Below, one piece after another: positions 6,934-34,404 of a DNA stretch of 64,000 nucleotides. This DNA is from a bacterium HR35 (GTDB lineage Bacteria > Patescibacteriota > Minisyncoccia > UBA6257 > HR35). The notes beneath the pieces were generated by a model. The model did no database searches. It had not been told where the DNA came from and saw only the letters and a program-made list of their open reading frames with translations. Where the stretch lies: assembly GCA_002898235.1 (NCBI GenBank), contig BEIL01000004.1:499-64498 (forward strand), in the 5' to 3' direction. Each line of letters opens with the position of its first letter. The stretch's first letter is position 1. A program made the translations under genes and the position numbers.

Positions 6934-6940
6934 CTTTTCT

Positions 6941-7387
6941 GTGTATTCACGGACTTTTTCGGACTTAACACGGACTTTACGGACAACACTGACTCAATCG
7001 GACTGAACACAGACTTATCGGACATGTTCATTTTGTCAGTTCTGTCCGTGTATGGTCCGTGTTCAGTCTGTGTATTCACGGACTTTTTCGGACTTAACAC
7101 GAACTTTACGGACAACACTGACTTAATCGGGCTAGACACAGACTTATCGAATATGTTTATCTTGTCCGTTCTGTCCGTGTATGGTCCGTGTTCAGTCTGT
7201 GTATTCACGGACTTTTTCGGACTTAACACGGACTTTACGGACAACACTGACTTAATCGGACTGGACACTAGCTGTTCGGACTGATTAACCGACCAAATCA
7301 GACTTAATACAGACTAATCGGACTTATCGTTATCTTGTCAGTTCTGTCCGTGTATAGTCCATACCTGTCCGTGTATAGTCCGTGTTA
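6941..7387. repeat. GC-rich tandem repeat: two near-identical 129-bp units (6941-7069, 7070-7198) plus a diverged and extended third unit
   Basis: Direct reading: gtgtattcacggactttttcggacttaacacggactttacggacaacactgac... recurs with a few substitutions. Each unit is built from cggac/gtccg words at roughly 10-20 bp spacing and contains the inverted pair gtccgtg...cacggac. GC content is far above the local background. Confidence 0.85.
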
Positions 7388-7810: not shown

Positions 7811-7993
7811 CTACCACCCTAACGCTACACTAAATCCTCCAATCCAAATTCCAATTACTGACGACTTCATTCCCAATTCTTTAACAATCAAAGCGCCGAT
7901 CCCTGCTCCAGCAGTACACAACGGACAATGAGCAAAAACAAATAATGGAATTAAAAATAAAATTAATAAAATCAAAACTAACGAGCTTTTCAT
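7811..7993 (-). CDS. Small secreted/membrane protein with a CPLC...AGAGIG motif
   Basis: 60 aa with a signal peptide followed by AHCPLCTAGAGIGALIV. It is a paralog of the N-terminus of the 26867..27346 product (AVCPVCIAGVGIGLGLS). Confidence 0.4.
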   Translation of the reverse strand: MKSSLVLILLILFLIPLFVFAHCPLCTAGAGIGALIVKELGMKSSVIGIWIGGFSVALGW

Positions 7994-8244
7994 TTTTTAT
8001 AAACATCTTTCCTATGACCAATTTTTAAAATAATTATTTTATCTCCATCAACATCAAAAAGTACTCTATAATCACCGATCCTAAGACGATATTCGCCTAA
8101 TCTTGAATCAACTAATTTTTCTGCATAAAGTAAAAAATTTTGTTGTGAGCTATAATATTTTAATTTCTTTAAAATCCTTTTTCTAATGTTAACATCTAAT
8201 TTTTTAAGATCTCGATAGGCTCCTTCTTTAAAATAAATTTTCAT
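7990..8244 (-). CDS. Type II toxin of the RelE/ParE superfamily
   Basis: 84 aa (...YRLRIGDYRVLFDVDGDKIIILKIGHRKDVYK). It shows the RelE/ParE signature (rlRvGdyRiiy......i.il.igHRkdvY). Its start overlaps the upstream antitoxin stop by 4 nt. Confidence 0.75.
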   Translation of the reverse strand: MKIYFKEGAYRDLKKLDVNIRKRILKKLKYYSSQQNFLLYAEKLVDSRLGEYRLRIGDYRVLFDVDGDKIIILKIGHRKDVYKK

Positions 8245-8441
8245 AAATTATGCTCTTTCAGGACTTTTTCTAATGGAATTAATTTTTTAGATTTTCTTCT
8301 CTGATTAATTATTCTTCTTAAGTTTTTCGAACTTAACATTTCTAAATCTTCAATAAATTTTACCCAATCTTTTAAAGACAAAATTACTTTCCGCTCGCTA
8401 ATCTTATATTTAGGAATTTTAATCAAATCTTTTGTGGCCAT
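8241..8441 (-). CDS. Cognate antitoxin (small DNA-binding protein)
   Basis: A 66-aa basic protein encoded immediately upstream of the toxin and overlapping it, which is the usual antitoxin-toxin operon arrangement. Confidence 0.55.
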   Translation of the reverse strand: MATKDLIKIPKYKISERKVILSLKDWVKFIEDLEMLSSKNLRRIINQRRKSKKLIPLEKVLKEHNL

Positions 8442-8499: not shown

Positions 8500-8625
8500 T
8501 ATAATTGATGCTATTATCCGCGTAAATCAGCGTTATAATAATCAGCGTATCTCAGCATATAAGGAAAATATCCGTATAAATCCGTTTAATAATCCGTGTA
8601 AATCAGTGTTCATATCTCCATAAAT
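8500..8625. promoter_or_regulatory. Cluster of four direct repeats (minus-strand consensus CnGATTTACrCGGAT) lying 60-190 bp upstream of the antitoxin-toxin operon
   Basis: The plus strand reads tatccgcgtaaatcagcgtt / aatcagcgtatctcagcat / atatccgtataaatccgttt / aataatccgtgtaaatcagtgtt. Likely roles are operator or iteron-like binding sites. The half-sites loosely resemble DnaA boxes (TTATCCgcg, aTATCCgta). Confidence 0.35.
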
Positions 8626-9083
8626 ATTCCTTTATCTTCTCCATTTTTGACTGAATGAATTTTGAAAGGATAGATTTTAAAACCTGGCATTCCGGGTGAA
8701 CCTGAGGGCATTCCTGGTAAAGCAATACCATCAATATCTGGCTTTTCAGTTAAAAGTTTTTGAATTGCTTCAATTGGAACATGACCTTCGATAAAATAAT
8801 TTCCTAATAAAACAGTATGACATGACCAAAGACCTTGAGGAATTCCAAACTGATTTTTTATTTTTATTAATTCTTCATCTGAAACTTCATTGACTTTAAC
8901 ATTAGCACCATTCATTTTTAAATAGCCAATATATTCTTTGCAACAACCACAAGTTGGTGTTTTATAAACAACAAATTCTAAACCAGATAATTTTGATTCT
9001 TTAAATGGAGTTTTCACTAAACTATAAATCGCTCCAACCAAAATTATGCCAATTATTATTCCAAAAATTAAATTTTTATTCAT
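8610..9083 (-). CDS. DUF411/CopG-like periplasmic metal-binding protein
   Basis: 157 aa with a signal peptide, a CGCC motif (TPTCGCCKEY), and a GMPSGSPGMPG motif. This is the layout I recall for the copper-associated DUF411 family. Confidence 0.5.
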   Translation of the reverse strand: MNKNLIFGIIIGIILVGAIYSLVKTPFKESKLSGLEFVVYKTPTCGCCKEYIGYLKMNGANVKVNEVSDEELIKIKNQFGIPQGLWSCHTVLLGNYFIEGHVPIEAIQKLLTEKPDIDGIALPGMPSGSPGMPGFKIYPFKIHSVKNGEDKGIFMEI

Positions 9084-9086
9084 TTT

Positions 9087-10217
9087 TTATAAGCCACATC
9101 CTCCGCCTGTTGAAGGAATATTTGGCACATTAGCTAATTTTTTCTCGACGTTTTGAATATAACCTGAAATTGATGAAAACTTTGCTGACATAATCTCTTT
9201 GACCTCGGATATGGACGGATCATTAAACGGATTTTCACGGATATTTTTATCGATTTGTGTTAAAGGCCAATCTTTACCTTCAACTAATTTTTTATATAAA
9301 GCAATTTTTATATAATTTTGAGGAAACCAAAACGAATTAAGCTGTAAAGCTAATTTATAAAGTTCATCTTCAGAATAACCTTGAGAGGCAGCAAGTTCTA
9401 AAGCACCAAGTAAAGCTGAGCCATGATTACAATCTTGAGCAAAAGTTGAATTATTACAACAGGGACGGAAAGTATTTTGAGCAACTCGATAAACAATTTC
9501 TTCTTGTTCAGGAGTTAATTTTATAATTTCACATTTATTAAAATATTCAGCACCATTATCTTTTTTACCTAACCACCAACCACCAGTTGAAGCTAAATAA
9601 GGAAGTTCTTTCTCAGAAAAAGGAATATTTTTATTAAATTCAGTTTTGTTTGAAAGTCCTAAAGGCCAAAAAAGAGTTAAAAGATGATTAGCGGTTTCTT
9701 GATTGATAACAATCGGCTCGTTTGACCCATCAATTGTCTTTTGAATATATTCAGGAATCTTGCCATTATATAATTTTTTCATTTTTTCTAAATCGATCAC
9801 CCCACAATCAATCATTTTTTTAACTGCATCACCAAAAACTATTCTTGTTTTAAATCCTTCTTGTGGTAAAACTTGGGAAATAATTTGTTGAATTAATTCA
9901 TTATTAACTGAATTATTAGAGTTAGACAATTTAAGAAACTTGAAATTAGCCAAAACGAAAATAGCCAATCCCCCAATTAAAATACCAATTAAAAGTTGTT
10001 TTAAATTAAGTTTTTTTGAATTATTCTCATCTAAATTATTTCGTTTTTCTTCATTGATTTGTAATTTAATAGCCTGTTTTACTATCTCTAAATTGCAATT
10101 TTTATATTTTTTACACCAATCTTCACATTCCTTTGCTAATACTTCATTTTCATAAACATGTTGACATTCTTCACATTGATAATAATTTTTATTTTCTCTT
10201 TGAATTATTTTAACCAT
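9087..10217 (-). CDS. Hypothetical protein with an N-terminal CxxC zinc ribbon (YQCEECQHVYENEVLAKECEDWC), one TM segment and a Cys-containing C-terminal domain
   Basis: 376-aa ORF embedded in the copper gene cluster. No family was recognised. Confidence 0.4.
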   Translation of the reverse strand: MVKIIQRENKNYYQCEECQHVYENEVLAKECEDWCKKYKNCNLEIVKQAIKLQINEEKRNNLDENNSKKLNLKQLLIGILIGGLAIFVLANFKFLKLSNSNNSVNNELIQQIISQVLPQEGFKTRIVFGDAVKKMIDCGVIDLEKMKKLYNGKIPEYIQKTIDGSNEPIVINQETANHLLTLFWPLGLSNKTEFNKNIPFSEKELPYLASTGGWWLGKKDNGAEYFNKCEIIKLTPEQEEIVYRVAQNTFRPCCNNSTFAQDCNHGSALLGALELAASQGYSEDELYKLALQLNSFWFPQNYIKIALYKKLVEGKDWPLTQIDKNIRENPFNDPSISEVKEIMSAKFSSISGYIQNVEKKLANVPNIPSTGGGCGL

Positions 10218-10218
10218 C

Positions 10219-10833
10219 TTATTCTTTTTTAATTTCGTTTCTTAATTTTTTAATTAAATAAGCTATACCTAAAACAAACAAAATTAAAACTAAAATTGGA
10301 AAAGTTAAAATTATCAAAAGCCATAAAAGACCTAAAATAGCAAAAATCGGTGCTAAAACATTCCAACCCCTCCAATTACTAAAATTCCACCACCAATAAC
10401 CCATTCCTGGTTGTCCCCAATTCATCATCATTGGTCCCATCATCGGCATCATAAACCCTTGAGAATTTACATTTGGATCACAACCCAAAAATCTTTTTCC
10501 CATATTAATATGCATTAACTCTTCTCCTTCCTTACCATGCATCTCTTCTATCATTTTATTCATTGTTAAATGATCACTACCACCAACCATTTGCTCCATT
10601 ACATATTCGCCAACTGAATGAAAGTCTTCATTAGTTAAATCTTGACATTTAATTTCACCTCGAGAAAATTTTTCCACTAATTCCCTACCCTTTTGAATTT
10701 CAGCATTAAGTTCAGCATCCTCAGTATGAGCAAAAACAAAACTTAAAGAAAAAAGAATTAAAAACGCAAAAAATAATACTTTACTAATTTGTTGTCTTTT
10801 ATAATGTATTCGTTGTAATTTTTGATTAATCAT
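10219..10833 (-). CDS. Secreted/membrane Met- and His-rich protein, a putative copper-binding protein
   Basis: Signal peptide, a MMPMMGPMMMNWGQPGMGYWWWN Met-rich stretch, a C-terminal TM segment. It is co-operonic with csoR (4-nt overlap). Confidence 0.45.
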   Translation of the reverse strand: MINQKLQRIHYKRQQISKVLFFAFLILFSLSFVFAHTEDAELNAEIQKGRELVEKFSRGEIKCQDLTNEDFHSVGEYVMEQMVGGSDHLTMNKMIEEMHGKEGEELMHINMGKRFLGCDPNVNSQGFMMPMMGPMMMNWGQPGMGYWWWNFSNWRGWNVLAPIFAILGLLWLLIILTFPILVLILFVLGIAYLIKKLRNEIKKE

Positions 10834-11099
10834 TTTCTTTTTGCTAATTTATAAATTTTTAAGATTTCTTTAACTGCGACCTCTTCTTTTTTATTTTTAA
10901 ATTGTTCTTTAACATGTGTTTTTAAGTGATTTTCTAAAATTAAATCTTCAATTCCTGATAAAGCATTTTTAACTGCCATTGATTGAATTAAAATATCAAC
11001 ACAATATTTATCATTTTCAATCATATTCCTCAATCCTTCAATTTGCCCCTTAATTATATTCAATCTTCTTAAAATTTTTATTTTTAATTCTTTATTCAT
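10830..11099 (-). CDS. csoR: CsoR/RcnR-family copper-sensing transcriptional repressor
   Basis: 89 aa. The sequence LRRLNIIKGQIEGLRNMIENDKYCVDILIQSMAVKNALSGIEDLILENHL carries the CsoR fold signature, including the Cys and His metal ligands (C...H...C pattern). Confidence 0.75.
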   Translation of the reverse strand: MNKELKIKILRRLNIIKGQIEGLRNMIENDKYCVDILIQSMAVKNALSGIEDLILENHLKTHVKEQFKNKKEEVAVKEILKIYKLAKRK

Positions 11100-11136
11100 A
11101 TCTTAATTATACCCCATCCTGGTATTTTTGTCAAAT
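11100..11136 (-). promoter_or_regulatory. csoR promoter with an embedded CsoR-type operator
   Basis: Minus strand reads TTGACA-AAAATACCAGGATGGGGTA-TAATTAAGATATG. There is a -35 TTGACA and a -10 TATAAT. Between them is the pseudo-palindrome ATACC-N7-GGTAT, resembling the B. subtilis copZA operator (TACCctacGGGGGTA, from memory). Confidence 0.5.
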
Positions 11137-11805
11137 ATTTAATTCATCAAAAATCTTTTTAGCATCAAGGCGATAAATTTCAGAAACTTTTTTATTTGTC
11201 TTTTCTAAATATTTTTTAATTAAATGAAAACCCAAAGAATAGCCTGCCCAACGAGGTATTTTTAATTTTTTGTTTCCAAACTTCCAAGAATAAATAAGAG
11301 AGATATCTCTTGAATCAAAATATTTTTTAGCTCTTTTTAGATATTTTTTAATTTCATTTTCTTTTAAAGCCATTGACCAAGGATAAAGCTTTGAGTTTTC
11401 TCCAAAAACTTCTAATTCAAAATGTTGGCACAATCCCTCTTCAATAATGGTATGTAAAAGATTTTTTTGCATTGGTTTAAACAAATTCCATCTTACAAGA
11501 TGAATAATTTCATGAGCAATAGCTCTTGGAATTTCTTCTTTAATTACTTTATTCTTAAAATTTTTAAATTTAGGGTTAAGATAAATATAAATTAAATAAG
11601 CACTCAAAGTTTTGCCTCCATGTCCGAATCCTGGTATACACATTTGCGGATTTTCTTCATAAACAATAGCAAAATCTTCAAGTTTTATTTTTTTATTAAT
11701 CTTCTTACAAGTTTCTAAAGTAGCCTTATTAATTTCCTTCTTAAATCCTTTTAATTCCTTTCCATAAATTGAAACTGTAACCTCCATTTTAAAAATTTTA
11801 ATCAA
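11131..11805 (-). CDS. Putative HExxH zinc metallopeptidase-like protein
   Basis: 224 aa with AIAHEIIHLVRW (HExxH). No further family assignment. Confidence 0.4.
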   Translation of the reverse strand: MIKIFKMEVTVSIYGKELKGFKKEINKATLETCKKINKKIKLEDFAIVYEENPQMCIPGFGHGGKTLSAYLIYIYLNPKFKNFKNKVIKEEIPRAIAHEIIHLVRWNLFKPMQKNLLHTIIEEGLCQHFELEVFGENSKLYPWSMALKENEIKKYLKRAKKYFDSRDISLIYSWKFGNKKLKIPRWAGYSLGFHLIKKYLEKTNKKVSEIYRLDAKKIFDELNI

Positions 11806-11932
11806 AATTATAATAAATTCAAGTTAAAATGAAAAAATTTGTGAAAAAGTTGTAAATTTGCAATAAAAAATATAGAAAATGATCGATATTTTTAGTTTAG
11901 TTTAAAACTTTTGACTTAAAATAATCATTAAG

Positions 11933-13183
11933 ATGAAAAAAATTCTTTTAGATGTAGGTTCATCAACAATAAAAGTTTATAAATATGGCGAAAATAAATT
12001 AGAACAACTTTTTCAAAGAACTATATTTTTTAAAGATAGATTTGACCCTGAAGGAGGCATTTCTGAAAACAATAAAAAGGAACTTTTAGAGCTTCTATAT
12101 TCAATTAAAGAAAATAATTCCGATTCCCAAATAAAAATTTACGCTACTGGTATATTTAGAAATTTAGCTCCAAAGACTAAAAGAAATTTTATTGATGAAA
12201 TATTTTTAAAAACAGGACTTTATTTTAATATTATCTCTTACGAATTAGAAAATTTTTATTTAGAGAGAGCATTAGTGGGTAAATGTAGTTTAAATGAACC
12301 CTTGCTTTTAATAAATATTGGAGGAGGCACAACTGAGCTTATAATTATGTACGGCGAAGAGGCTATAGAAAGAAAAAATATAGAAATAGGAGTTGGAAAA
12401 ATTTTAAATGACTTTCCTGGAATTAATAAAAGCATATCGGAGATTAAAATAGAAGAATTAATAGAAAGATTTAAAGAAATTTTGCCATCTTTAGAAAACA
12501 AAATAAGAATTGCTTTTTTAAGCGGAGGAGAATTAACTTATATGAAAGTGGCTAATTATCCACTTAAGAAAAATAATTTGTTCGAAGATGAAGATCATCC
12601 TTATTTAATATACTTTGAAGATTATAAATTAAAAAATAAAGAGATTTTTGAAAAAATAACATTGGAAGAATTAGAAAAAATGATGCCAGATAATCCCAAA
12701 TGGATGCATGGAGCAAGGCCTTTTTCTGCTTTAGCTCAGGCAATTTGTGAAAAATATAATGTTGAGATTATTATTCCTTCTGATTCAAATCTAATAAATG
12801 GAGTAATTAGACAAGAATTTAGATATGTAACGATAAGTGGGAGCTTTAGAAAACATTTGGAGTATATTTTAAAAATAAAAAAAGAATTAGAAAATAAGGG
12901 GGTTCATATTTTAAGTCCAAGATTTGAAGAACCAAAAAATCCAGGAGAAGAATTTGTTATTTTCGCCGGCGAAGAGAATTTAAGCCCATTAGAACTTGAA
13001 AGGTATCACTTAGAATCAATCGAAAATTCAGATGCTCTGATAGTTTGTGATCCAAATGGTTATGTTGGAGCTTCTGCTCTTTTAGAAATTGGTTATGCTC
13101 ATTCTTTAGGAAAAAGAATTATTTTTACTGAAAAACCAGAAGAATTTATTTTAAACCAATTACCTCACGAAGTTGGCTTGTAA
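11933..13183 (+). CDS. Fusion protein: an N-terminal Ppx/GppA-type (ASKHA) phosphatase domain and a C-terminal nucleoside 2-deoxyribosyltransferase-like Rossmann domain
   Basis: The N-terminus (LLDVGSSTIKVYKY... INIGGGTTEL) matches Ppx/GppA motifs. The C-terminus (YVTISGSFRKH...ALIVCDPNGYVGASALLEIGYAHSLGKRIIF) matches the NDT/SLOG-like GxxxxEiGyA motif. Confidence 0.5.
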   Translation: MKKILLDVGSSTIKVYKYGENKLEQLFQRTIFFKDRFDPEGGISENNKKELLELLYSIKENNSDSQIKIYATGIFRNLAPKTKRNFIDEIFLKTGLYFNIISYELENFYLERALVGKCSLNEPLLLINIGGGTTELIIMYGEEAIERKNIEIGVGKILNDFPGINKSISEIKIEELIERFKEILPSLENKIRIAFLSGGELTYMKVANYPLKKNNLFEDEDHPYLIYFEDYKLKNKEIFEKITLEELEKMMPDNPKWMHGARPFSALAQAICEKYNVEIIIPSDSNLINGVIRQEFRYVTISGSFRKHLEYILKIKKELENKGVHILSPRFEEPKNPGEEFVIFAGEENLSPLELERYHLESIENSDALIVCDPNGYVGASALLEIGYAHSLGKRIIFTEKPEEFILNQLPHEVGL

Positions 13184-13242
13184 AAATTATATTTCCTCTT
13201 TATTTTCATTTAATTTTTCCAATAAATTTAGATTTGAAAATT

Positions 13243-14124
13243 TTAAAGCAATTTGAGACTTTTTCTAAATTCTTGCGAGTTTTCAAATGGTCCTAAATCA
13301 ACTGGAGCTTGCCACCACCACGGTTTTTCTTTCTGCACTAAATTAGCTATTTCTTCTAGAATAGTTAAAAATTCACTTTCCGAAAGCTTTACTCCTTTTT
13401 TGAATTCTTGAAAAACTTCTAAAGCAAAATCAATTTCATTTTCCTTAGTAAAACCAATTAAAACTACATCCACTGGTTGGTTAAAAACAAAAAGTAGAGA
13501 TTTTCTTACTAATTTCTTATCTGTTATCAATCCAGCACCTAAAATTAAAATTCCAATTACTTTCTTTTTCTGATTTTGAATAATTTTAGCTAACTGTCGA
13601 AAAGATATTTTACCCTTAGATTCCAACTCTTGATCTCGAAAAAAATTTAAAGGACCTAAGGGTAACATAAAAGTGTCGAATTCAAATTTTTCTAAAGCTA
13701 TTTTTAAAACTTCGGGATCGTAATGATTAGTTATTCCAATTTTAGAAATGATCCCTTGATCTTTTAATCTCCGTAAAATACTAAAAGCACCATCGTCTGA
13801 AGTAATTAAATTCAAACAATTCAAAGTATCTACTGAGTGAAGTTGAAGAATATCTATTTTAGGGAGTCTATTTTTTATTCCCTCTAACTCCCAAAGAACA
13901 TCTTGCTTTCTTCTAGCCAAAATTTTAGTAGCAATTATAATATGTTCTAAATCTTTGCCGATATTACTCAAAACCGAACTTAGATATTTCTCATTTTCTC
14001 CATAAAATCTTCCATATGTTGGCGCAACATCGAAGTATCTTATCCCTTTGTTTAACGCATATTCAATTAATCTTTCAGGTTTTTCACTTTTATGCAGAAA
14101 AGCACAACCAAAGCCAATTTCCAT
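13243..14124 (-). CDS. Aldo/keto reductase family oxidoreductase
   Basis: 293 aa. MEIGFGCAFLHK...GIRYFDVAPTYG is the typical AKR N-terminus. Confidence 0.65.
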   Translation of the reverse strand: MEIGFGCAFLHKSEKPERLIEYALNKGIRYFDVAPTYGRFYGENEKYLSSVLSNIGKDLEHIIIATKILARRKQDVLWELEGIKNRLPKIDILQLHSVDTLNCLNLITSDDGAFSILRRLKDQGIISKIGITNHYDPEVLKIALEKFEFDTFMLPLGPLNFFRDQELESKGKISFRQLAKIIQNQKKKVIGILILGAGLITDKKLVRKSLLFVFNQPVDVVLIGFTKENEIDFALEVFQEFKKGVKLSESEFLTILEEIANLVQKEKPWWWQAPVDLGPFENSQEFRKSLKLL

Positions 14125-14884
14125 TTTTGAATTTAATTATAATTATCGATTATCTAGAAAATTTTTCTTATTTTTTATTTCTATTATGCCGTAAATTTTT
14201 CTTTCCTCATTCTCAAAACATTTAAACTAACAATTATTGTAGATAAACTCATTGAAATTGCCAGTTCAGGCAATAGAATAAATTTAACTACTTTTTGGAA
14301 GAACATTCTTCAGAAAACAAAATTTACCTAAAAATAATTCTTCCTTTTTTATTCCAGAAAAAATTAACCCATCGACCAGAAGATAATTCTACTACACCTG
14401 CTAAAGCGCTATCAGATTGAGAATGAATATAAAATATAATAATTTTTTCCTAGTTCTCCTTTCTAATTCTAATATTTTATCAATAACTACTCCTGGTTCT
14501 AATGGTGTTTGGGTTTCTAACATATATCTGGGATCACATCGTCTATAAAGTGGAAAAGGTTCTCTAAATAATTTTCTTTCTAATTCTTCTTTTTTCTTTA
14601 TTAATTCCTTTATTTTTTGTAAGATTAAATTTAAATCAATACCTTCTTGATTAATTATTTTTTTAATTCTTCAGCTAAACCTAAAACTTCTTGATATTCT
14701 TGCTTGATTGTTTGACAAGGAGATTCTAGAGACATAGAGAATTTTATGCTAATTGTTATGTTAATTTTATTTTATAATAATCTTTCCAATCATATTCTTC
14801 AGATCATCAATCTATCCCTTGTTTAAAATTCTTTTTTTTATTGTTTTATCTATATTTTAACTAGACTTAATCCTAGTATTTTTG
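14125..14884. other. 760-bp gene-poor decayed region: a copA fragment, short disrupted ORFs, and a degenerate copy of the csoR-type promoter cassette (14861-14884)
   Basis: There are no ORFs of 60 aa or longer. Minus-strand fragments (MSLESPCQTIKQEYQEVLGLAEELKK*, then a frame-shifted continuation) are visible. The sequence aatatttgacaaaaatactaggattaagtc matches the csoR promoter aatatttgacaaaaataccaggatggggtataattaag, except that the ggggtataat segment is deleted. Confidence 0.5.
14207..14300 (-). pseudogene. Orphan duplicated 3' fragment of the copA P-type ATPase gene
   Basis: The segment ctcaaaacatttaaactaacaattattgtagataaactcattgaaattgcc is about 85% identical to the copA 3' end at 14893-14960. 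Its minus-strand translation LAISMSLSTIIVSLNVLR matches the CopA C-terminus AILMSLSTIIVSLNALRM. Confidence 0.6.
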
Positions 14885-17002
14885 TCAAATATTTCTCATC
14901 CTCAAAGCATTTAAACTAACAATTATTGTGGATAAGCTCATTAAAATTGCTCCAATTGCTGGAGAAAGAAAAATTCCTTTAAAAGCTAAAATTCCTGCTG
15001 CTAAGGGAATGGCTACAATATTATAACCAGTTGCCCAAAATAGGTTTTCAATCATTTTTTGATAAGTTAGTTTTGAAAGTTTAATTAATTTAACAATATC
15101 TCGAGGATCATTTCTAACTAAAATTATTCCTGCTGATTCAATAGCAACATTTGTTCCAGCACCAATAGAAACTCCAACATTTGCTTGCATCAAAGCTGGA
15201 GCATCATTAATTCCATCGCCAATCATCATAACCTTTAATCCCCTTTGTTGAAGTTCTTTTACTTTGTCAACTTTTTCTTGGGGTAAAACTTCAGCAAAAT
15301 ATTCATCAATTTTCAATTCTTTAGCAACTTTTTCAGCAACTTCTTTTTTATCTCCAGTCATCATCATAACTTTAATTCCTAGTTTATGTAATTCTTCAAT
15401 TGCTTCTTTAGATTCTTCTCTAATTTCATCTTCTAAAATGATAGCTCCCAAAATATTTTTCTCCTGATCAATTAAATAACTAATTGTGCCAATTGTTTCT
15501 ATTTGAGTAGGTTTAATATCTAATTCTTTTAATAAATTATCTCCTCCTAAATAATAAACTTTGCCATTAATTTTTCCTTTTATTCCTTTACCTGGCAAGT
15601 TTTCAAAATCTTCAACTTTTAAAATTTCAATACTTTCTTCTTTTGCTTTTTCTAAAATTCCTTGAGAAATAAAATGAGAAGAATATTGTGAAAGAGAAGC
15701 TGAAATTTGTAAAATAAAATTTTTATCTTCACCAAGTATTTTTTTAACTTTGAATTTTCCCGTTGTAAGAGTGCCTGTTTTATCAAATAAAACAATATTA
15801 ACTTTTCTTGCCAGCTCAAGCTGGGGTCTATTTCTAATTAAAAACCCATTATGAACTGCTAAAGATGTTGAAATAGCAACTACTAAAGGAACAGCAAGCC
15901 CCAAAGCATGAGGACAAGCAATTACTAAAACTGTAACTAACCTTTCTAAAGCAAAAGCAAAATCTTTTTGTAAAATTAGCCAAATAATAAAACTTAAAGA
16001 ACCAACACCAAGAGCAATAAAAGTCAAATATTTAGCAAAAACATCTGCTAAAACTTGAAGTTTTGATTTTGATTTTTGTGCTTCTTGGATTAATCTTTTT
16101 ATTCCTGCTAAAAATGTTTCTTCGCCAATTTTTGTTACTTTAATTTTTAAAATTCCGTCGCCATTAATTGTTCCAGCAATAACCTCAGAGCCGACTTCTT
16201 TTAAAACAGGTTTACTTTCACCAGTAATCATACTTTCATTAACTTCTGATCTTCCTTCAATCACTATTCCATCAACTGGAATTTTTCCTCCTGGACGGAC
16301 TAAAACAATATCTCCAACTTTTAATTCATTTAAAGAAACTAATCTACCATTTTCTAATTCAGCTACATCAGGTAATAATTTTTCTATTTCTTGTAAAGCT
16401 CTTTGAGCCGAAGAGATTGACTTCATTTCAAAATAATGACCTAAAAGCATAATAGTGATTAAAGAAGCGAGTTCCCCAAAAAAATTAGATCCACGCAGAT
16501 CAACGCAGAACGAACGCAGAACTACGCAGAAAATATTATTTAAAGTTATGTAAAGACTATAAATGTAAGCTGAAGTGATAGCTAAAGAAATTAAAGTCAT
16601 CATTCCAGGATTTTTTGCTTTTATTTCTCTATAAGCACCAACAAGAAAAACCCAACCACCATAAAAGAAAACAATCGAAGAAAAAATTAAAACTAGCGCA
16701 GACTTAAGCAGACTGAACGCAGACCATTGCAGACCAAAAATATTTAAGTTAAAAAAATCAAAAGAAAGAAAAATAACAAAGATTGTCAGGATTAAACAGA
16801 GCCAAAATTTTTTAAGAAAATCCTCTGCGCGATGCCCATGATGTTTATCTAAATACTCTTTATGTTCTGTATGTTTTGCGTCAGTTCTGTGAGTTCTGCG
16901 TTCTTCTTCTATCTTAACAAGTTTCATCCCACAAACAGGACAATTTCCAGGTTCATCTTGCGGATCGATACAACCCATTGGGCAAATATACTTTTTCACC
17001 AT
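14885..17002 (-). CDS. copA: Copper-translocating P1B-type ATPase
   Basis: 705 aa. It has an N-terminal CPVCGM/CxxC metal-binding site and a His-rich stretch, the CPH transmembrane motif (IACPHALGLAVP), the DKTGTLT phosphorylation site, GDGINDAP, and MTGD. Confidence 0.85.
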   Translation of the reverse strand: MVKKYICPMGCIDPQDEPGNCPVCGMKLVKIEEERRTHRTDAKHTEHKEYLDKHHGHRAEDFLKKFWLCLILTIFVIFLSFDFFNLNIFGLQWSAFSLLKSALVLIFSSIVFFYGGWVFLVGAYREIKAKNPGMMTLISLAITSAYIYSLYITLNNIFCVVLRSFCVDLRGSNFFGELASLITIMLLGHYFEMKSISSAQRALQEIEKLLPDVAELENGRLVSLNELKVGDIVLVRPGGKIPVDGIVIEGRSEVNESMITGESKPVLKEVGSEVIAGTINGDGILKIKVTKIGEETFLAGIKRLIQEAQKSKSKLQVLADVFAKYLTFIALGVGSLSFIIWLILQKDFAFALERLVTVLVIACPHALGLAVPLVVAISTSLAVHNGFLIRNRPQLELARKVNIVLFDKTGTLTTGKFKVKKILGEDKNFILQISASLSQYSSHFISQGILEKAKEESIEILKVEDFENLPGKGIKGKINGKVYYLGGDNLLKELDIKPTQIETIGTISYLIDQEKNILGAIILEDEIREESKEAIEELHKLGIKVMMMTGDKKEVAEKVAKELKIDEYFAEVLPQEKVDKVKELQQRGLKVMMIGDGINDAPALMQANVGVSIGAGTNVAIESAGIILVRNDPRDIVKLIKLSKLTYQKMIENLFWATGYNIVAIPLAAGILAFKGIFLSPAIGAILMSLSTIIVSLNALRMRNI

Positions 17003-17045
17003 ATCTTAATTATACCCCCTATAGGTATCTTTGTCAATTCAAATC
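17003..17045 (-). promoter_or_regulatory. copA promoter with a CsoR-type operator
   Basis: Minus strand reads TTGACA-AAGATACCTATAGGGGGTA-TAATTAAGATAT-ATG. The -35 and -10 elements and the ATACC-N7-GGTAT pseudo-palindrome are nearly identical to the csoR promoter cassette at 11100-11136. Confidence 0.55.
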
Positions 17046-32451: not shown

Positions 32452-34404
32452 ATGTCAGAAGAATTTAAACCAGGAGGGTTTTTAAAGAAAAGATATTGGG
32501 GATTTGAAGATTTTAGAAATGCGGTAGCAAGAGCAAGTAAAAGAAAAATAGGTAAAATTCTTCCTAAGCCTGAGGAGCAAATTCCTCATTATATTCAAAG
32601 GATTATAGATATTTTAAAAAAAGAAAGGGGCAAGGAATTATTTAAAAAACAAATACTTTATAAAAGATTTATTATTAAACCCGAAAGGATACCAGAAGAC
32701 TATTTTAAAAATGTTTTATTAGGCAATTTTGCTGAAAGATTAGGATATACAAGAGAACAATTAAAAGATCCCCAAATTAGACAAGCTGTAATTAAGCTAT
32801 TTGAAGAGCGAACAGGTCAATCTTTTGAAACTTATCAAATTCCAAAAGAAGAAAAAGAACAATTAATCCAACAAATAATTGAAGATCAAAAAAGAAGTTT
32901 AGATAGATGGTTTGATTATTTAACTTCTCCTGAGGCTGAAAATTATCCTCCTGAATTTAGATATTGGGTTTTTGCTGAAGTTTTAGGATGCGGAAATTAT
33001 GATGAAGAAAGAAAAGAATACAATGAGAGAACAAAAACAACAGTTGCTCCTTTTCCTGAACTTAATTCTCAAGCTTTAGCTTTATTAATTAATGAACTTA
33101 TTAGAAAAGAACAAAAAAAACCGTCGGGGTTAATTAATTTAACTGAAGAACAACGAAAAGAATGGCAAAATCTCATTCATTTTTCAAATGGTATTGTTCC
33201 TAGAGTAGCGATAGTTTTTAATAGAGATTTAAATCAAATAACTGAAATAAGAGGAATTGCAAAGGGTCAAAACCTGGATCCATATATTGCTCCTATTGTT
33301 GAAGAAGCTTTAACTGAAGGATTAGAAATAGAAGGAGAAAAAAGAAAACTTGCTGGTTCAGAAAGATATCTCAGGGCAGCTCAAGATATGAGGAGATTAG
33401 CTGAAATTTATATAAAACATTTACAAAAGCAGGAATTAACATCTGAAGAACTAAGATTTTTGTATGAAATAGATAGAGAAATAATAGGATTTGGTTATGA
33501 AAGAGATCCGAGGATAGAAGAAATTTTAAGAGGGCGAGATCTTGAAAAAGATTTAGCTAAAATTTTTGATTGTAGGGAAGATCAAATTGCTTTAGAAGCT
33601 GATAAAGTTACAGATGAAACAGTTGTTTTATGGGGAGATTTTACTTCTAAAATAGCACAAACGTGGACGAAGTTTCCTAATAATTTAAAATTTATCAGAG
33701 GAGATGCTGATTTTAGAAATTCACAAGTAGAAGATTTAGGGAATTTAAGAAGAATAGGTGGAAATGCTTATTTGGGAAATTCAAGAATTAAAACATTAAA
33801 AAATCTAGAAGAAATTGGGGGGTATGTTTATTTTGCAAATTCACAAGTAGAAGATTTAGGGAATTTAAGAAGAATAGGAAGATCTGTCACTTTTGTGAAT
33901 TCAAGAATCACAACACTAAACAATCTAGAAGAAATTGGAGAAGATGTTGATTTTAGAAATTCACAAGTAAAAGATTTGGGGAATTTAAGAAGAATAAGAG
34001 GGTCTGTTATTTTTGCGAATTCAAAAATCACGACATTGAAAAATTTAGAAGAAATTGGGGGATATGCTAATTTTAGAAATTCACAAGTAGAAGATTTGGG
34101 GAATTTAAGAAGAATAATGGGGGATGCTATTTTTACGAATTCAATAATTAAAACATTAAACAATTTAGAAGAAATTGGGGGATATGCTGGTTTTGAAAAT
34201 TCACAAGTAGAAGATTTAGGGAATTTAAGAAGAATAGGGTGGAACGCTTATTTTGGAAATGCACCAATAAAGAATTTAGGTAGGTTAGAAGAAATAGGTG
34301 GAAGCTGTTATGTAAGTAAAGAAAACCAAGAATTGATAAAATTATTAGAAGAAAGGGGCTTTGGCAATAAAATAATAATATACACAATAAAATATACACA
34401 ATAA
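32452..34404 (+). CDS. Large protein with an N-terminal domain of unknown function and at least 8 C-terminal BspA-type leucine-rich repeats
   Basis: 650 aa. The C-terminal 23-aa repeats follow the pattern F.NSQVEDLGNLRRIGG.A.F / .NS.I.TL.NLEEIGG.V.F. Confidence 0.6.
   Translation: MSEEFKPGGFLKKRYWGFEDFRNAVARASKRKIGKILPKPEEQIPHYIQRIIDILKKERGKELFKKQILYKRFIIKPERIPEDYFKNVLLGNFAERLGYTREQLKDPQIRQAVIKLFEERTGQSFETYQIPKEEKEQLIQQIIEDQKRSLDRWFDYLTSPEAENYPPEFRYWVFAEVLGCGNYDEERKEYNERTKTTVAPFPELNSQALALLINELIRKEQKKPSGLINLTEEQRKEWQNLIHFSNGIVPRVAIVFNRDLNQITEIRGIAKGQNLDPYIAPIVEEALTEGLEIEGEKRKLAGSERYLRAAQDMRRLAEIYIKHLQKQELTSEELRFLYEIDREIIGFGYERDPRIEEILRGRDLEKDLAKIFDCREDQIALEADKVTDETVVLWGDFTSKIAQTWTKFPNNLKFIRGDADFRNSQVEDLGNLRRIGGNAYLGNSRIKTLKNLEEIGGYVYFANSQVEDLGNLRRIGRSVTFVNSRITTLNNLEEIGEDVDFRNSQVKDLGNLRRIRGSVIFANSKITTLKNLEEIGGYANFRNSQVEDLGNLRRIMGDAIFTNSIIKTLNNLEEIGGYAGFENSQVEDLGNLRRIGWNAYFGNAPIKNLGRLEEIGGSCYVSKENQELIKLLEERGFGNKIIIYTIKYTQ
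33690..34270 (+). repeat. Intragenic near-identical tandem DNA repeats (138-bp period made of two 69-bp sub-units) encoding the LRR units
   Basis: aattcacaagtagaagatttagggaatttaagaagaata... recurs about 5 times with only a few substitutions. Confidence 0.8.

Follow-up and report, generated by a model that had tools for sequence, protein, structure and literature searches.

Two copies of one promoter/operator cassette in a probable CsoR-type copper regulon of the Patescibacteria bacterium HR35, with signs of repeated insertion at the copper ATPase terminus

The stretch of DNA analysed here, referred to as the window, comprises 64,000 nucleotides (64 kb) of contig BEIL01000004.1 from the bacterium HR35, a member of the Patescibacteria or Candidate Phyla Radiation (CPR), and carries a set of copper-related genes that includes the repressor gene csoR. 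For the locus as a whole the explanation that we consider likely is a two-unit CsoR-type regulon, probably copper-responsive, combined with a history of insertions at the terminus of the copper ATPase gene. The first unit would be a CopB-like Cu-ATPase of the CPH type and the second an operon of csoR followed by genes for a Met/His-rich protein, a Zn-ribbon/PCC-domain protein and a CopG (DUF411) protein, both units being driven by copies of one promoter/operator cassette. By analogy with characterised CsoR systems, apo-CsoR on the operator would block RNA polymerase and the binding of metal would release the repressor. The regulatory mechanism is textbook CsoR and of a known kind; the points of interest, of modest novelty, are a phylum-wide operator-in-promoter design, an insertion hotspot and two uncharacterised csoR-linked protein families. 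To our knowledge there is no genetics for Patescibacteria and almost no characterised regulator, and the locus offers a clear case of metal regulation in this group that is backed by comparative data.

The copper-island genes of note are all located on the minus strand, the Ppx/GppA-like gene being convergent on the plus strand (Table 1). The order in the direction of transcription is cassette 2, the ATPase gene, a decayed region of 760 bp (14884 to 14125), an aldo/keto reductase (AKR) gene, the convergent Ppx/GppA-like gene, a DUF2268 (HExxH) gene and cassette 1, followed by csoR and the genes encoding the Met-rich, 376-aa and DUF411 proteins. Neighbours among these last four genes overlap or are separated by 1-3 nt, and the four form a single operon. 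Comparison was made with 80 fetched genomic loci encoding CPR CsoR homologues plus three strain variants, 83 in total (loci are numbered with the prefix L); L001 was left out as it is from the same genome as the window and is 99.985% identical. The nearest CsoR relatives are from hot-spring Parcubacteria/Paceibacteria genomes assembled from metagenomes. The order csoR, Met-rich, 376-aa and DUF411 is kept in L002-L007, L009-L012, L087, L089 and L090, and the grouping of these genes in a first-pass annotation of the same DNA, made from the sequence alone, is upheld. The GC content of the window is 27% with a composition profile of 0.25-0.30 throughout, giving no distinct island signal, and Rfam returned no matches in the window at the gathering threshold.

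Cassette 1 (TTGACAAAAATACCAGGATGGGGTATAATTAAGATATG) ends in the ATG of csoR and cassette 2 (TTGACAAAGATACCTATAGGGGGTATAATTAAGATATG) in the ATG of the ATPase gene, and the two are identical at 33 of 38 nt (87%). Cassette 1 is composed of a -35 box (11134-11129), the operator ATACCAGGATGGGGTAT (11125-11109) and a -10 box (11111-11106) followed by TAAGAT and the start codon, and cassette 2 of TTGACA (17037-17032), the operator ATACCTATAGGGGGTAT (17028-17012) and TATAAT (17014-17009) followed likewise by TAAGAT and the start codon. The 17-nt spacer between the -35 and -10 boxes of both holds a G-tract operator with a TAC-N9-GTA core that overlaps the -10 box. The two cassettes are the sole matches to TTGACA-N17-TATAAT in the 64 kb, where 0.03 are expected, and no other 12/12 promoter match was found in the region. 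Exact matches to ATACC-N7-GGTAT are also confined to them, as are scores above 8 bits against a weight matrix derived from 75 CPR csoR operators (21.0 bits for cassette 2 and 18.3 bits for cassette 1). These results confirm the near-identical 38-nt cassettes and the consensus -35/-10 pair described in the first-pass annotation, and the motif search that it proposed, run within the window, found ATACC-N7-GGTAT only at the two copper units. Its formula ATACC-N7-GGGGTA has no match and is corrected to ATACC-N5-GGGGTA, the same as ATACC-N7-GGTAT. As it had also observed, the DUF2268 and ATPase genes both end in the codons for NI at the shared sequence AATATTTGACA, with the TGA stop codon within the -35 box. 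The -10 box ends 6 nt ahead of the ATG in both cassettes, from which the mRNAs of both units are predicted to be leaderless. As a separate observation on the window, a Shine-Dalgarno-like motif is present within 20 nt of only 2 of the 57 open reading frames (ORFs) of at least 120 aa, in many of which a TATAAT-like box precedes the ATG by 5-8 nt, and this suggests leaderless or Shine-Dalgarno-independent initiation as the rule in the HR35 genome.

A third copy of the cassette, 79% identical, is located at the stop codon of the ATPase gene. The alignment of this copy with cassette 1 is ungapped and stays in register 72 nt into the csoR codons (81%, E = 2e-14), and the homology of the two junctions reaches 6 nt upstream of TTGACA. 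The third copy retains an unchanged -35 box, with the ATPase TGA inside its TTGACA, while the right operator arm, G-tract, -10 box and ATG were lost through substitutions (GGGGTATAAT to TAAGTCTAGT; ATG to ATA), leaving an operator score of -11.2 bits and no -10 box. The triplication reported in the first-pass annotation therefore holds for the presence of a third copy, not for a third working copy. A 10-bp deletion removing ggggtataat, the loss that had been assigned to this copy, is ruled out by the ungapped 72-nt register, the -10 box and G-tract having been changed by substitution. The dead csoR fragment continues colinear past a 15-nt deletion, and its translation (IDKTIKKRIL-----NKG*IDDLKNMIGK, aligned with MNKELKIKILRRLNIIKGQIEGLRNMIEND of csoR) has in-frame stops; compared with csoR of L004 it is 71% identical over 77 nt (E = 1e-5). 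From these alignments the relic reads as an ATPase-terminus junction followed by a dead cassette and a dead 5' end of csoR.

Copies of the ATPase terminus are found at four places in the window: the intact gene end, a relic at 14300-14203, a relic at 13208-13189 and the tail of the DUF2268 gene. The larger relic aligns at 14261-14203 with 14950-14892 of the ATPase gene (90%, E = 8e-16), extending in a gapped alignment to 14284-14203 against 14975-14892, and the duplicated 3' fragment of the ATPase gene noted earlier passes the BLASTN-type check that had been suggested for it. The shorter relic is part of a segment (13208-13101) that is 90.7% identical to 7787-7894 of L003 and colinear with the junction of ATPase end and Ppx gene at that locus. 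The last 23 nt of the DUF2268 gene (TTTGATGAATTAAATATTTGACA) are approximately 80% identical to the terminal 24 nt of the ATPase gene with one indel, suggesting that the DUF2268 tail may be descended from an ATPase relic. When all island proteins were searched against the decayed region with tblastn only the ATPase C-terminus was significant, the rest being mostly AT-rich noise, and Pfam returned nothing for the reconstructed broken ORF of this region.

The comparative synteny check proposed in the first-pass annotation was also performed, and shows the operon kept and the junction of ATPase stop and -35 box present in relatives. L087 has a compact order of cassette, ATPase, csoR (2 nt past the ATPase stop), Met-rich, 376-aa and DUF411 genes. 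Apart from approximately 3.8 kb that separates the ATPase end from csoR in the window, the two loci are colinear, with nucleotide identities of 74-77%. In L089 the terminal 40-mer of the ATPase gene occurs three times, as the true gene end, a 66-nt copy beside the Ppx gene and a relic of at least 113 nt. This relic is approximately 98% identical and fused to the functional csoR cassette with the stop inside the -35 box (...AAAGTTTGACAAAAATACCCGGATGGGGTATAAT), which is the same junction as that at the intact ATPase gene of the window. L002, L004 and L005 each have a second copy of the ATPase terminus flanking different cargo, which is Ppx in L002, a block of YcaO, nitroreductase and methyltransferase genes in L004 and a 770-bp insert between 44-bp repeats in L005. 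No second copy was found in L003, where Ppx abuts the ATPase gene. The AKR gene is absent at this place in L002-L005, L087 and L089. The Ppx/GppA-like gene neighbours the ATPase gene in L002, L003, L005, L089 and L090, flanked in L089 by ATPase-terminus repeats.

The ATPase C-terminus occurs as two allele types. Type A (ILAFKGIFLSPAIGA) is present in the intact gene of the window and in L011, L019, L087 and L089, and type B, which has a 30-nt palindromic insertion (LPGSEFILLPGP), in L002-L005. The 14203-14300 relic carries the insertion typical of the L002-L005 ATPases whereas the intact ATPase gene of the window is without it; in L004 the situation is the reverse, the intact end being type B and the relic type A. 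This mismatch identifies the 14203-14300 relic as a former end that was displaced, as opposed to the product of a recent self-duplication, and indicates that DNA from divergent strains entered at the ATPase terminus.

The scars would thus record insertions that took place repeatedly at the 3' end of the ATPase gene in at least five related genomes, that end being duplicated each time. A possible order of events begins with an ancestral arrangement of cassette, copB, cassette, csoR and the rest of the operon, in which the copB stop lay in the second -35 box. Repeated insertions of the Campbell type or by unequal crossover at the copB terminus would each have duplicated the flanking segment, after which the redundant half of each duplicate decayed. 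The upstream duplicate would have retained the reading frame of the ATPase and lost its cassette and csoR portion to decay; in the downstream duplicate the cassette and csoR would have survived and the ATPase portion degenerated, and it is into this portion that the DUF2268 gene would now read with its last codons. An operon split by insertion in this manner would stay regulated through its second promoter/operator copy.

The duplicated termini could instead be attachment sites of site-specific integrative elements directed at the final ~40 nt of the ATPase gene and supplying a replacement 3' end, with the AKR, Ppx, YcaO cluster and small genes as remains of such elements. This explanation, which we regard as unlikely though worth serious attention, contests the mechanism of insertion only and not the regulon. 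In its favour are the use of one target in five genomes, flanking direct repeats that invariably finish at the stop codon, the 770-bp insert of L005 between its 44-bp repeats, and the different allele types of intact and displaced ends, as expected if incoming DNA supplies the end. However, no integrase or recombinase gene was found in any insert examined, the left ends of the repeats differ with no common core, and neither a recombinase gene nor a fixed attachment core, both characteristic of a site-specific element, was found at the ATPase 3' end. Moreover, one insert carries the csoR cassette and the 5' end of csoR, as would DNA of a related strain that entered by Campbell-type or unequal crossover.

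The first-pass annotation had explained the locus by recombination between cassette copies, the cassette itself being the unit that was copied three times, was fused independently to two genes and lost 10 bp from its third copy. The three copies do share the AATATTTGACA junction, and functional cassettes within a genome are more alike than their counterparts elsewhere, L005 having the identical core ATACGGGGATGGGGTAT at both cassette sites, a result compatible with some exchange. The 72-nt ungapped match into csoR codons nevertheless indicates that a module larger than the cassette was duplicated, with no 10-bp deletion. The junction on the relic of at least 113 nt in L089 likewise points to a shared junction that is inherited and not convergent; the observation of an identical fusion at two genes was correct, but the two separate events supposed to have produced it reduce to one ancestral junction. 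Finally, the relics that flank variable cargo in five genomes are those of the ATPase terminus, some with no cassette attached. Cassette recombination as the driver is accordingly improbable, and repeated insertion at the ATPase terminus is preferred.

Several observations weigh against the explanation offered here. The ATPase-terminus duplicates vary in length (40, 44, 66, ~84, ~100 and 113 or more nt), although this variation together with the lack of a recombinase would favour homology-driven insertion over a site-specific element. The shortest relics (13189-13208 and the DUF2268 tail) are in AT-rich sequence where chance similarity is high. The compact locus L087 (GCA_038996935.1) is labelled Aenigmatarchaeota and may be mis-binned or horizontally acquired. 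The csoR-proximal operator (ATACCAGGATGGGGTAT) is only weakly palindromic. The sensor triad of the regulator, C33-H58-H62, is C-H-H in place of the canonical Cu(I) triad x-C-H-C (Cys36/His61/Cys65 in the numbering of Mycobacterium tuberculosis), and the RLXR DNA-contact motif of helix alpha-1 (defined in PMC3902906) is replaced by R12-L13-N14-I15 (RRLNIIKGQ); within the clade, R12 and L13 do not vary and I15 hardly does.

The product of csoR matches PF02583 (Trns_repr_metal) with 85.7 bits against a cutoff of 22.8, and its best relatives in the PDB are the CsoR proteins 4M1P, 3AAI and 2HH7. Histidine is found at position 62 in 114 of 118 CPR CsoR homologues and cysteine, giving C-H-C, in three close ones, of which P0005 and P0009 have the same gene context. 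In the alignment the C-H-H triad is identical to that of Thermus thermophilus CsoR (TTHA1719, PDB 3AAI), a validated copper repressor (PMC10318464), and the sensing function may therefore be kept. The HR35 and T. thermophilus regulators are also alike in that csoR is co-located with a Cu-ATPase gene and that the host is a thermophile; gene order and partner genes of the T. thermophilus copZ-csoR-copA operon differ from those of HR35, and the T. thermophilus operator is a GC-rich CCCCACCCCACCTGGGGTGGGG site, not of the TAC-N9-GTA type (PMC10318464). A type-2 operator is present at the promoters of both the HR35 csoR gene and the copper exporter. The fingerprints of RcnR (His3), FrmR (Pro2) and CstR (a second conserved Cys) are absent, the N-terminus being MNK with one Cys in the protein. 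By domain and operator the protein is assigned to the CsoR family. Copper is most likely the effector, based on the CPH Cu-ATPase and CopG/DUF411 targets, the T. thermophilus-like C-H-H triad and the lack of any RcnR, FrmR or CstR fingerprint.

A sensor of Ni/Co (RcnR-like), formaldehyde (FrmR-like) or persulfide (CstR-like) is very doubtful. NCBIfam gives sub-threshold matches to RicR, FrmR and RcnR alike, the third ligand is His as in the H-C-H-H set of RcnR, and many of the CsoR homologues have the JGI label 'FrmR family'. Against these points, position 3 is Lys and not His, Pro2 is missing and there is a single Cys; the triad is that of T. thermophilus CsoR, with C-H-C in the close homologues P0005 and P0009; and the targets are a CPH Cu-ATPase and CopG/DUF411 under an operator of CsoR type 2.

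The published type-2 CsoR operator is ATATACCCCTNAGGGGTATAT, with an essential core of TAC-X9-GTA as an inverted repeat flanking G-tracts (PMC3902906). The TAC-X9-GTA rule holds for the two operators of the window (ATACCAGGATGGGGTAT and ATACCTATAGGGGGTAT), in agreement with the CsoR-operator-like pseudo-palindrome of the first-pass annotation. A TAC-N9-GTA site is located directly 5' of csoR in 75 of the 83 CPR loci, ending 10-13 nt from the start codon in 65 of these 75 and preceded by TTGAC in 50 with a spacer of 17 ± 1 nt. The right arm of the CPR operators begins the -10 box, which is TAtaat, TAttat, TAtact or TAtcat. In 1.22 Mb of CPR loci, G/C-tract operators were found almost exclusively at csoR, the exceptions being P1B ATPase genes separated from csoR, in L002-L005, L019, L089 and L090; a homologue of the cassette is 5' of the ATPase gene in L003, L004, L005, L087 and L089. 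This specificity for csoR and the separated ATPase gene indicates that the cassette is a specific phylum-wide design and not a generic promoter, and the leaderless operator-in-promoter appears to be a lineage-wide architecture of Patescibacteria and no local oddity. The shared design would allow CsoR regulons to be predicted directly from Patescibacteria sequence. A generic strong promoter of the HR35 genome with no specific operator, a reading under which the -10 box 5-8 nt before the ATG and near absence of Shine-Dalgarno motifs at many window genes would be expected, is hardly credible and is rejected for the window, since the refutation check named in the first-pass annotation found the only two perfect promoters and two operator matches in 64 kb at copper genes, and the operator core is conserved at csoR over phylum-level distances.

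The locus resembles the CsoR-copZA systems of Bacillus subtilis and Streptomyces lividans in the PF02583 repressor, the G-tract pseudopalindrome with its TAC-N9-GTA core, and the overlap of the operator with the promoters of the copper-efflux ATPase gene and of csoR itself. The ATPase operator of HR35 (ATACCCCCTATAGGTAT) differs from the S. lividans copZA1 site (ATACCCCCTAGGGGTAT) at 2 of 17 positions. Unlike these systems, no CopZ chaperone was seen in the HR35 locus, the pump is CPH-type and not CPC-type, the triad is C-H-H and RLXR is altered, the mRNAs are predicted to be leaderless, and the operon encodes three envelope proteins, two of them uncharacterised.

As a separate observation, some loci have period-11 arrays of the GTTCGCG type (up to ~9 units) in the place of the operator cassette: 5' of csoR in L009 and L010 and 5' of the ATPase gene in L011 (17345-17419) and L008 (3504-3578). 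No TAC-N9-GTA operator is close by where the arrays stand in L008-L011. Either the promoter has been replaced at these loci or another regulator binds there.

The ATPase has the motifs ACPHALG, GYNIVAIP (YN(x)4P) and MSLST, and its N-terminus consists of a heavy-metal-binding domain (HMBD, PF19335) and a His-rich stretch with 7 His in residues 38-58, with no HMA domain. P1B-3 ATPases are defined by CPH in transmembrane helix (TM) 6, (G)YN(x)4P in TM7, MSxST in TM8 and a His-rich N-terminal region (PMC5552934). The ATPase has these P1B-3 (CopB-type) features and lacks those of P1B-1 (CPC, MxxSS and a CxxC ferredoxin-like domain). The label copA given at first pass is therefore replaced by CopB-like, the assignments of csoR, DUF411 and the ATPase to their families holding by domain matches. 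The features in common with the CopB ATPases of Enterococcus hirae and Archaeoglobus fulgidus are CPH, YN(x)4P, MSxST and the His-rich N-terminus; the HR35 protein differs in the extra zinc-ribbon-like HMBD, in-frame insertions of periodic GC-rich repeats and regulation by CsoR. The insertion in the M1-M2 loop (FCVVLRSFCVDLRGS) consists of four in-frame copies of TCTGCGT; a different 13-aa insert is found at the same loop site in the L003 and L005 ATPases, and inserts of 25-50 aa in the nucleotide-binding domain of those of L003, L004 and L011. Separately, the 964-aa ATPase of L002 (3124-6018) contains a PDDEXK_3 (PF13366) domain and in the LepA gene of L088 (7467-9776) the GTPase parts are separated by PDDEXK_3; it would seem that essential CPR genes have acquired nuclease-like domains in the manner of inteins or mobile insertions.

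Table 1. Features of the copper island in the window, in the direction of transcription of the minus strand.
Feature	Position	Strand	Evidence
Cassette 2, ATPase promoter and operator	17000..17037	-	Cassette alignment, promoter and weight-matrix scans, homologues in relatives
P1B-3 (CopB-like) ATPase, 705 aa	14885..17002	-	TIGR01511 591 bits, motifs
Dead cassette TTGACAAAAATACTAGGATTAAGTCTAGTTAAAATATA	14851..14888	-	Ungapped alignment 79-81%, operator score -11.2 bits
Decayed csoR 5' fragment	14774..14850	-	Colinear alignment to csoR
Decayed region, broken reading frames (e.g. ...FREPFPLYRRCDPRYMLETQTPLEPGVVIDKILE...)	14310..14773	-	No Pfam match
Displaced former ATPase 3' end, type B (KVVKFILLPELAISMSLSTIIVSLNVLRMRK)	14203..14300	-	Alignment to ATPase 3' end
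Aldo/keto reductase (AKR) gene, cargo	13243..14124	-	Between two ATPase-terminus relics
Short third ATPase-terminus relic (...GAGGAAATATAA)	13189..13208	-	Beside Ppx gene 3' end
Ppx/GppA-like gene, 416 aa	11933..13183	+	Domain matches; convergent with ATPase
DUF2268 (HExxH) gene	11131..11805	-	TGA inside cassette 1 -35 box
Cassette 1, csoR-operon promoter and operator	11097..11134	-	Weight matrix 18.3 bits
csoR, 89 aa, PF02583	10830..11099	-	Triad C33-H58-H62
Met/His-rich membrane-anchored protein, 204 aa	10219..10833	-	Start overlaps csoR stop
Zn-ribbon/PCC-domain protein, 376 aa	9087..10217	-	Weak DUF7128 match, invariant motif
DUF411/CopG-like protein, 157 aa	8610..9083	-	PF04214, 6.5e-25

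The Met-rich protein has a conserved signal-peptide-like N-terminus ending in FVFA|HTED, and the mature protein is predicted to start with a conserved His after cleavage. It contains conserved His, Met and two Cys, a linker MMPMMGPMMM and a C-terminal transmembrane helix. The family has only 73 matches, which are found in CPR bacteria of hot springs and on contigs with the label Aenigmatarchaeota or Thermoplasmata. The protein has no Pfam match and is modelled as a helical bundle; a Foldseek search of the AlphaFold2 (AF2) model against the PDB gave no hit below E = 1, and the family profile found only noise among PDB sequences.

The 376-aa protein consists of an N-terminal Zn ribbon (weak match to DUF7128), a transmembrane helix and an uncharacterised C-terminal domain for which there is no Pfam model. 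The family has an invariant motif RPCCNNSTFxQDCNHGSA and a Cys near the C-terminus, with more than 1,100 matches at 90% clustering and 1,325 cluster representatives at 50% clustering (E <= 1e-3). The AF2 model has a predicted local distance difference test (pLDDT) score of 82.9; Foldseek found no PDB hit for it below E = 1 and the profile found nothing among PDB sequences. A family member is located within 3 kb of csoR in 28 of the 83 CPR loci; these are mostly ~300 aa in length and without the Zn ribbon, the PCC...DC.H motif being kept. Ten long family members were scanned, of which one has a cupredoxin fusion and two a rhodanese fusion (P0345, P0380 and P0393), results that hint at a link of the PCC...DCxH domain to copper and/or thiol-sulfur chemistry. 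None of three arbitrarily picked homologues of ~550 aa is near copper genes, indicating that the copper link holds for a subset of the family only.

The DUF411 protein matches PF04214, has a weak glutaredoxin-like match and contains TCGCCKEY, in which CGCC corresponds to CxCC, and GMPSGSPGMPG, with a segment at the N-terminus that is either transmembrane or a signal. The CopG proteins have a CxCC motif and adjacent Met ligands in a thioredoxin-like fold and bind copper as a tetranuclear cluster (PMC7558416); in Vibrio, CopG is a member of the CueR regulon. Assignment to the periplasmic CopG (DUF411) proteins is consistent with PF04214, the CxCC motif, the adjacent Met and linkage of the gene to a copper exporter, the fold being read from sequence matches. 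The HR35 protein differs in its occurrence in a CPR bacterium with no outer membrane known, its N-terminal hydrophobic anchor and its place in one operon with csoR. In addition, no multicopper oxidase is encoded in the window, whereas L002 has one beside its DUF411 gene. It is plausible that the Met-rich and 376-aa proteins are extracytoplasmic copper-handling proteins, and both are nominated for biochemical study. We suggest only tentatively that the two operon genes represent new copper families of CPR and of DPANN-labelled contigs and that the ATPase terminus is a true integration hotspot for small pieces of cargo lacking an integrase, perhaps linked to the periodic 10-11-nt GC-rich repeat arrays.

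With regard to the DPANN-labelled contigs, the copper operon was found not only in L087 but also with P0155, P0280, P0285 and P0307 on contigs binned as DPANN or Thermoplasmata, and the archaeal-labelled copper operon carries a bacterial-type TTGACA/TATAAT cassette. The reason is either a recent transfer across domains, between episymbionts of hot springs, or a systematic error in binning. L002, L003 and L004 are all from GCA_026004515.1 (KatS3mg095) and represent three syntenic but differing versions of the locus, with csoR 87-88% identical to the window. This assembly is probably a mixture of related strains, a caveat for its use.

All close relatives have the Ppx/GppA-like gene, the C-terminal half of which is without assignment, next to the Cu-ATPase gene irrespective of how the genes are ordered. 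Polyphosphate and copper may be functionally linked. The cargo of L004 (5393-9225) includes, in addition to the YcaO, nitroreductase and methyltransferase genes, an ORF of 57 aa, and may represent a compact cluster for production of a ribosomally made, modified peptide (RiPP). Immediately beyond the 3' end of the DUF411 gene, on the minus strand of the window (7990-8441), are a gene for a ParE/RelE-like toxin of 84 aa and an upstream 66-aa antitoxin-like gene. A similar pair is present at the equivalent place in L004 and not in L003, a further sign of a variable region.

GC-rich arrays of 3-4 short units with a period of ~10-12 nt (CGGACT/GTCCGT, ATCCGT/ACGGAT, ACGCAGA and GCAGAC) are present in the window at 6938-7385, 8565-8612, 9200-9247, 16493-16531, 16697-16734 and 16864-16901. 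A 6-mer chaining script found 7 clusters in the 64 kb, all within 6.9-16.8 kb around the copper island, to which Tandem Repeats Finder (TRF) adds the weaker array at 16864-16901. The segment 6938-7268 is a higher-order repeat of 129 nt (2.6 copies, 93% matches) and folds into a long hairpin (z = -5.05), and the arrays at 8565-8612 and 9200-9247 form an inverted repeat (48 nt, 81%) on both sides of the DUF411 gene. The periodic repeats are in frame within coding genes at 16490-16535, 16690-16740 and 9200-9247, the 376-aa protein carrying the in-frame repeat NIRENPFNDPSISE. The 30-nt palindromic insertion of the type B ATPase C-terminus (CCAGGTAGT...ACTACCTGG) is also in frame and recalls the in-frame palindromic elements of Rickettsia. 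A tandem repeat at 33700-34302 (period 60/120 nt, 10 and 4.5 copies, 65-83% matches) probably belongs to a gene for a repeat-containing protein and is unrelated to the copper island.

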